Below are positions 3,991 to 4,453 of a stretch of 10,107 nucleotides of DNA, piece after piece. Origin of the DNA: a virus (Duplodnaviria; Heunggongvirae; Uroviricota; Caudoviricetes); the IMG/VR virus record IMGVR_UViG_2675903595_000003; one strand, 5' to 3'. The notes beneath the pieces were generated by a model, which did no database searches, was not told the DNA's origin, and saw only the letters and a program-made list of their open reading frames with translations. Every line of letters begins with the position of its first letter. Within the stretch, counting starts at the first letter, position 1. The position numbers were made by a program, and so were the translations under genes.

Positions 3991-4453
3991 NNNNNNNNNN
4001 NNNNNNNNNNNNNNNNNNNNNNNNNNNNNNNNNNNNNNNNNNNNNNNNNNNNNNNNNNNNNNNNNNNNNNNNNNNNNNNNNNNNNNNNNNNNNNNNNNNN
4101 NNNNNNNNNNNNNNNNNNNNNNNNNNNNNNNNNNNNNNNNNNNNNNNNNNNNNNNNNNNNNNNNNNNNNNNNNNNNNNNNNNNNNNNNNNNNNNNNNNNN
4201 NNNNNNNNNNNNNNNNNNNNNNNNNNNNNNNNNNNNNNNNNNNNNNNNNNNNNNNNNNNNNNNNNNNNNNNNNNNNNNNNNNNNNNNNNNNNNNNNNNNN
4301 NNNNNNNNNNNNNNNNNNNNNNNNNNNNNNNNNNNNNNNNNNNNNNNNNNNNNNNNNNNNNNNNNNNNNNNNNNNNNNNNNNNNNNNNNNNNNNNNNNNN
4401 NNNNNNNNNNNNNNNNNNNNNNNNNNNNNNNNNNNNNNNNNNNNNNNNNNNNN
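3991..4453. other. run of 463 N (masked or unsequenced)
   Basis: Literal n characters. Hides the rest of the third tRNA and roughly 400 nt of unknown content. Confidence 1.

Follow-up and report, generated by a model that had tools for sequence, protein, structure and literature searches.

The run of 463 N's that interrupts this lambdoid prophage between its first tRNA genes and its lysis genes very probably stands for 247 nt of DNA of the kind carried by an otherwise identical contig, namely the end of a tRNA-Thr gene, a tRNA-Gly gene and a non-coding trailer, and the locus would then be an ordinary four-tRNA array. The trailer is a conserved, covarying structured RNA, and it is the only part of the locus that might be new. 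Comparison with related prophages gives no indication of a hidden toxin or cargo gene in the gap.

By the window we mean the whole stretch of 10,107 nt that was analysed (IMG/VR record IMGVR_UViG_2675903595_000003, Caudoviricetes). Coordinates refer to the window unless a relative is named, and the features are collected in Table 1.

Table 1. Features of the window around the masked interval, with the corresponding positions in the IMG/VR contig L022 where these apply
Feature	Position	Strand	Evidence and remarks
Late antiterminator Q	2166..2573	+	Pfam Phage_antitermQ, E = 2.7e-52
Candidate late promoter	2578-2607	+	TTGACC, 18 nt, TATATT; consensus scan; directly after Q
Candidate short-transcript terminator	2669-2685	+	Consensus scan; ~60 nt beyond the promoter-like site
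ORF6N-domain protein	2856..3617	+	Pfam ORF6N, E = 1.5e-20; between Q and the tRNAs; 'ORF6N domain-containing protein' in RefSeq relatives
Terminator-like hairpin and T-run, upstream of the tRNA array	3693..3714	+	8-bp stem with 5 GC pairs, TTTTATACCT tail
tRNA with anticodon CAU	3807..3883	+	Met according to ARAGORN; identical sequence is tRNA-Ile in RefSeq (lysidine-type Ile2, reads AUA)
tRNA-Arg(UCU)	3885..3961	+	ARAGORN; reads AGA
tRNA-Thr(UGU), first 27 nt	3964..3990	+	Cut by the N run; identical to L022 3953-3979
First N run	3991-4453		463 N; 247 nt (L022 3980-4226) in 100%-identical contigs
Trailer domain 1	L022 4134-4217	+	Wholly under the mask; 7-bp closing stem GCACUGA/UCCAGUGC, inner hairpins, then a U-run
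Trailer domain 2, ~30-bp hairpin	4451..4533 (L022 4224-4306)	+	First 3 nt masked, rest visible; RNAalifold and pair counts
Terminator-like hairpin and T-run, trailer-to-holin spacer	4592..4611 (L022 4365-4384)	+	
Strong terminator-like hairpin (10 bp) and T-run	4947..4973 (L022 4720-4746)	+	40 nt upstream of the holin start
Class II (phage 21 S-type) holin	5014..5229	+	Pfam Phage_holin_2_1, E = 1.5e-35
Endolysin and Rz	5229..5923	+	Split by the second N run, 5389-5741 (353 N), which is 617 nt in L022 and L033

Recovery of the masked interval

The flanks of the masked run match E. coli prophages at 99-100% identity, and the left flank is 100% identical to that in FDAARGOS_943 (L001). In this genome, as in VL40 (L002) and CFSAN029787 (L003), the two flanks are separated by 247 nt, and the same spacing is seen in all nine of the complete E. 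coli genomes that carry both flanks. An exact scan with 40 nt of the right flank, together with L001-L003, gave 37 loci, of which four are in species-representative genomes and 30 in IMG/VR. The interval measures 247 nt in 34 of these loci, 246 nt in two and 1534 nt in one, which carries an IS insertion; 27 of the 37 share an interval that is base for base identical to that of the IMG/VR contig L022. We did not find any N's in the four species-representative and 30 IMG/VR loci.

L022 and a second IMG/VR contig, L033, are 100% identical to the window at 12-3990, 4454-5388 and 5742-10089, that is, over all of its readable bases (~9.3 kb). The 247 nt of L022 consist of the last 49 nt of tRNA-Thr(UGU), 3 nt, the 75-nt tRNA-Gly(UCC) and 120 nt of non-coding trailer, and such identical relatives most probably give the hidden content of the window. 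Since positions 3964-3990 are the first 27 nt of the third tRNA, the N run begins within the tRNA cluster and not after it. The initial annotation had described a masked stretch between the tRNA cluster and the lysis genes; the run is real and does lie after Q and before the holin start, but its left end falls inside tRNA-Thr. The same annotation had named, as the content that would speak against a hidden gene, nothing more than the third tRNA and non-coding spacer. The identical contigs hold very nearly this, the sole addition being a fourth tRNA.

Lengths of the two N runs

The window has exactly two runs of N's, 463 at 3991-4453 and 353 at 5389-5741, and at both of them the length disagrees with records that are otherwise identical, as would be the case for an assembly or scaffold gap or for a mask that alters length. 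Compared with L022 and L033, the first run is 216 nt too long (463 versus 247) and the second is 264 nt too short (353 versus 617). From the endolysin start at 5229 to the Rz stop at 5923 there are 695 nt in the window as against 956-965 nt in the relatives, and L022 has at this place a complete endolysin of 165 aa (Phage_lysozyme) and a complete Rz of 154 aa (Phage_lysis). Since 353 nt cannot hold the missing parts of endolysin and Rz that the 617 nt of L022 restore, the run lengths are not faithful.

Whether the 463-N run is a scaffold gap or a deliberate mask, its length carries no information. In both cases the earlier argument that roughly 400 nt were left free after the third tRNA fails because of the unfaithful run lengths; the 247 nt of the identical contigs are taken up by 127 nt of tRNA part and 120 nt of trailer. 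More generally, it is unsafe in this window to judge from the size of an N run whether a gene would fit, since its N runs do not keep length.

As to the origin of the N's, we give only slightly less than an even chance to a variant of our best explanation, in which both runs are scaffold gaps of estimated size, left where a short-read assembly broke at repeats in the genome. The errors of the two run lengths are opposite in sign (+216 and -264), as they would be in gap-size estimates. Furthermore, the hidden tRNA-Thr/Gly stretch also occurs in the thrU-tyrU-glyT-thrT operon of the host, which is found in about 5,400 of the 5,426 E. coli genomes; the hidden stretch can be present in a second prophage too (CP182556.1 and CP178302.1 have two loci each); and endolysin and Rz are common to lambdoid prophages. 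On the other hand, the visible flanks are also repeated between prophages, the boundaries of the repeats have no obvious match to the ends of the runs, and deliberate masking is the other possible source of the N's.

It is improbable that the run length is faithful after all and that the window exceeds its relatives by about 216 nt, which might be two or three extra tRNAs, a small ORF or an sRNA near tRNA-Thr/Gly. It is common for masks to keep coordinates, arrays of this kind differ between prophages in their upstream part (Ile-Arg, Ile-Lys, Ile-Phe, or Thr-Gly alone), and an insertion just after tRNA-Gly is tolerated in one relative (L014). In addition, the length differences of 216 and 264 are both multiples of 3 and of 24, which may be a coincidence. 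However, we were not able to find a spacing of 463 nt in any of the 37 right-flank loci or in the 5,426 complete E. coli genomes, and a search of viral and metagenome contigs for flanks spaced by exactly 463 nt gave no match. The flanks of the window are 100% identical, up to the N boundary on both sides, to contigs with 247 nt, and the second run is demonstrably unfaithful: a true length of 353 nt would shorten endolysin or Rz by 88 codons. The premise of a faithful gap length, on which the first estimate of its content was built, is contradicted by these contigs, and we keep to the reading of the masked DNA as the 247 nt seen in L022.

The tRNA array and its gene context

ARAGORN reports two tRNAs in the window and four in each of L022 and L033. 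Both ARAGORN and Rfam place tRNA-Thr(TGT) at 3953-4028 and tRNA-Gly(TCC) at 4032-4106 of L022, and the Rfam tRNA scores are 56-70 bits compared with a gathering score of 29. Completed from these contigs, the predicted array of the prophage is made up of four tRNAs, Ile2-CAU, Arg-UCU, Thr-UGU and Gly-UCC, between Q and lysis genes of the phage 21 type. This layout is already known, as Ile-Arg-Thr-Gly is annotated by RefSeq in L001-L003. According to Pfam, DnaB, RusA, Q and ORF6N lie upstream of the array, and holin, endolysin, Rz, HNH, terminase and portal lie downstream; Q, the tRNAs and the lysis cassette are all on the + strand (Table 1). The HNH endonuclease gene (5966-6316) lies directly upstream of the small and large terminase genes, and an HNH gene next to the terminase genes is the usual arrangement in HK97-type packaging.

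We compared the phage tRNAs (L022 3953-4106) with those of the host (L040 574-933). The phage tRNA-Gly agrees with glyT in 75 of 75 bases and the phage tRNA-Thr with thrU in 74 of 76, both mismatches being in the D loop and in the visible part of the gene. By these alignments, the Thr-Gly pair seems to have been captured from the thrU-tyrU-glyT-thrT operon as a piece comprising thrU and glyT, from which tyrU has been deleted.

The four tRNAs of the array decode exactly the codons ATA, AGA, ACA and GGA. These are used by the phage at 7.9, 5.8, 15.9 and 10.5 per 1000, respectively, in a count of only 2,771 codons. All four values are presumably above the E. coli averages; the host baselines for ATA, AGA and GGA are assumed values, and that for ACA (7.1) is the one given for the host of SfI (PMC3636060).

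In six relatives (L001, L002, L003, L031, L034 and L035) positions 15-16 of the hidden interval are changed from GT to TC. By our reading, this change falls in the 3' strand of the anticodon stem of tRNA-Thr and would break two of its five pairs. With two broken pairs in the anticodon stem, the tRNA-Thr copy in those six relatives may be impaired.

A structured RNA trailer after tRNA-Gly

The trailer is made up of the 120 nt of spacer under the mask together with the 80 bases that follow the gap. It is present in 224 of the 5,426 complete E. coli genomes (~4%), and the IMG/VR contigs that carry it number more than 100. Besides the E. coli genomes with both flanks, 215 have it at an identity of 70-78%, and we found no annotation of the trailer in any of these 215. 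Only two of 50,697 phage records contain it, one of them under the label 'hypothetical protein'. A tRNA on the same strand, nearly always Gly-UCC, precedes the trailer in 82 of 87 distinct contexts, and the lysis cassettes or cargo downstream of it differ. When the search is anchored on tRNA-Gly instead, the trailer is present in 74 of 135 distinct downstream sequences.

The consensus fold and the pair counts were obtained from 62 distinct copies of the trailer, which were collected by a degenerate-pattern scan. Note that these copies are related to each other, and that the variation visible in the 3' arm of domain 2 is limited because the 22-nt pattern used for retrieval is anchored in this arm. 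The consensus pairing holds in 97.4% of the cells in the 62 copies, compared with 28-59% when the partners are slid. Ten pairs vary on both sides, and there are 80 compensatory cells as against 25.4 in shuffles, a value that was reached by none of 500 shuffles. Many of the changes in the helices are switches from G-U to A-U or G-C.

Domain 2 has 30 pairs in helices 4-6, which are paired in 96-98% across the 62 copies, and its G-U pairs are conserved. The minimum free energy is -40.4 kcal/mol (z = -5.7) on the + strand versus -23.2 (z = -2.6) on the - strand. The hairpin thus offers, on the transcribed strand, the at least ~20 bp of nearly continuous double-stranded RNA by which we judged potential RNase III substrates, and a stem of about 30 bp is long enough for this enzyme.

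The commonest variant of domain 1 folds into a cloverleaf-like four-way junction (z = -4.6), and L022's own variant folds weakly (z = -1.8). In most of the 62 copies there is a near-invariant GCACUG/CAGUGC stem that is followed, after 2-3 nt, by six or seven U. Unlike a simple intrinsic terminator, this stem encloses 80-100 nt with inner hairpins, and domain 1 is missing from the results of the consensus terminator scan. A fold of L022 4107-4250 as one piece gave z = 0.06, which is misleading since this segment cuts domain 2 in half; the folds of the separate domains and the covariation gave a different picture.

In two IMG/VR loci (L086 3974-4193 and L106 195-414) domain 2 is present and the 5' half is unrelated to that of the other copies; in L106 it begins in a tRNA-like manner (GCCGGCTTAGTTCGGTTGGTAGAG...). 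The two loci hint that domain 1 could be derived from a tRNA gene or be exchangeable with one. We also considered that domain 1 might be a decayed tRNA, and there was no tRNA or tRNA-like match at its position. Furthermore, SerU-LTIIb (L039) contains two diverged copies of tRNA-Gly plus trailer, at 1201-1500 and 3107-3400, each of them before a holin gene or a fragment of one. This arrangement suggests that the tRNA-Gly-plus-trailer module may have been duplicated or recombined together with lysis cassettes.

A search of Rfam 15 with permissive E-values returned, apart from the tRNAs, only models of microRNA precursors, with 13-24 bits compared with gathering scores of 70-245. We were also not able to find a match to strings of the trailer sequence in the literature searched, nor an RNA annotation of the trailer in any of the records that we examined. 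Tentatively, and with odds that we put somewhat below even, the trailer may be an undescribed RNA family that resides on prophage tRNA-Thr/tRNA-Gly cassettes and acts as a combined terminator and RNase III or 5'-protective module, parting the tRNAs from the cargo and lysis mRNA downstream.

The question of a cargo gene

The interval between the tRNAs and the lysis genes had been called the usual neighbourhood of accessory genes in lambdoid phages, which agrees with what we see in relatives: in L046-L048 the tRNA trailer is separated from the lysis genes by TerB, DUF3927 or hypothetical genes. It had also been noted that stxAB is too long for the gap, and this stands. The further suggestion that a small gene or an sRNA might find room there can be followed in part. 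The interval does hold tRNA-Gly and a structured non-coding domain, but protein-coding cargo is lacking from it, and so are Pas homologs and sRNAs that belong to a known family.

Stx phages have their cargo in this general region, after Q and the tRNAs and before the lysis genes, and the TerB and DUF3927 genes of L046-L048 are located in the corresponding place. Yet it is extremely improbable that the gap hides an accessory gene of the moron or toxin type comparable to stx. The cargo of those relatives is found beyond the trailer, in what would be the visible 4534-5013 of the window and not the masked part; this visible part has no credible gene; and 463 nt are too short for stxAB. An LT-II-type toxin was rejected in the same way as stx: it would not fit into the interval, and the LT-IIb toxin genes of SerU-LTIIb come after the endolysin.

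PHROG has no match for the four small ORFs (61, 71, 83 and 98 aa) that lie within the masked stretch or near it. Of 13 close relatives, nine have frameshifts or stops in the 98-aa ORF (4511-4807), and we do not regard it as a gene. PGAP annotates no gene between tRNA-Gly and the holin in L001-L003, and an alignment of the spacer with SerU-LTIIb contains many indels whose lengths are not multiples of 3. We looked for extra DNA with a conserved coding ORF in comparison with cargo-less relatives and did not find it; what the identical contigs have here is the 247 nt of tRNA and trailer.

The 1.3-kb insertion in L014 (2368-3687) is not cargo; its genes for the OrfA and OrfB transposase mark it as an IS3-family element. 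It is located directly after tRNA-Gly, where it replaces about 33 nt of the trailer start and removes most of the 5' part of domain 1. The Pas sRNAs were rejected as well: PasA, PasA-long, PasC, PasD1 and PasD2 have best blastn matches to L022 of 9-14 nt, with E = 0.03 or higher. What had been supposed to be a cargo slot is a place of ordinary phage tRNA genes, which are already annotated by RefSeq in identical prophages.

Transcription signals and a possible working of the locus

The promoter-like site and the terminator that directly follow Q (Table 1) are in what we take to be the position of pR' and tR' in lambda, and 2578-2685 may be a pR'/tR'-like arrangement that gives rise to a short transcript. 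With the promoter-like site directly after Q, the late operon would begin with the ORF6N gene, and the tRNAs would follow it. In the region from the tRNAs to the holin (L022 3400-5050) we counted 8 terminator-like sites on both strands, versus 1.8 expected. The trailer-to-holin spacer (4454-5013) is dense in such hairpins, again on both strands. Given the promoter-like site and the terminator-like hairpins, the tRNAs would be inside a unit that needs antitermination by Q to reach the lysis genes. We also count in favour of a late operon that one strand carries Q, the lysis genes and the sites that resemble promoters and terminators.

The array would be transcribed as part of the late operon, with antitermination by Q, and there may also be some low-level transcription of it in the lysogen. 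RNase P and the 3' processing enzymes of the host would excise the tRNAs, which would then raise the decoding capacity for AUA, AGA, ACA and GGA. Domain 1 with its U-run probably stops or processes those transcripts that are not antiterminated. Domain 2 probably serves the lysis mRNA after excision of the tRNAs, either as a site for RNase III or as a stem that protects the 5' end.

The trailer is located where excision of tRNAs meets the expression of the lysis or cargo genes that come after it. Should it be a module for processing or termination, this would explain how tRNA genes can reside in a late operon without destabilising the lysis mRNA and without a leak of lysis-gene transcription in the lysogen.

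Comparison with known systems

The window differs from FDAARGOS_943, VL40, CFSAN029787, L022 and L033 in its N's, which they lack, and in that their interval is 247 nt; the Ile-Arg-Thr-Gly array, the spacer, the class II holin and flanks of 99-100% identity are common to all. Compared with the thrU-tyrU-glyT-thrT-tufB operon of the host, the phage array lacks tyrU and thrT, and the trailer takes the place of thrT and tufB. The distance from Thr to Gly is 3 nt in the phage, whereas in the host operon thrU is followed by 8 nt, tyrU, 116 nt and glyT. In Stx phages of the 933W type, ileZ-argN-argO lie upstream of stx, and the Ile(CAU)-Arg(UCU) pair is reportedly of this Stx-phage kind, as in 933W.

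Genes for tRNAs are found downstream of Q in SfI, Sf6, ST64T, PS3 and P21 (PMC3636060). SfI carries tRNA-Asn/Thr-UGU, and its use of ACA is 17.3 per 1000 versus 7.1 in its host (PMC3636060), to be compared with 15.9 here. The array described here resembles these lambdoid late-region tRNAs in its position after Q and before the lysis genes, in its location on the late strand and in the inclusion of Thr-UGU. It differs in having four tRNAs that end with Thr-Gly, in having no stx or other cargo behind them and in its conserved structured trailer.

The PasA, PasC and PasD sRNAs adjoin the holin-lysozyme operon in EPEC and EHEC prophages (PMC8550237 table S6; bioRxiv 10.64898/2026.05.13.724894). 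Like the trailer, the Pas sRNAs are non-coding and occupy the interval that directly precedes a class II holin gene of lambdoid prophages. However, PasA and PasC are on the opposite strand, whereas the trailer goes with tRNA-Gly and has the orientation of the late genes, and it has no similarity to Pas beyond chance.

Lambda has the sib/tI retroregulator, and RNase III hairpins are known from the R sites of T7 and from the N leader of lambda. The trailer sits after a tRNA array and sib/tI after int, and the likeness between them would be one of arrangement. By this analogy, the trailer would resemble sib/tI in that a terminator-like element with a U-run stands beside a long, near-perfect hairpin that would be formed only in read-through RNA.
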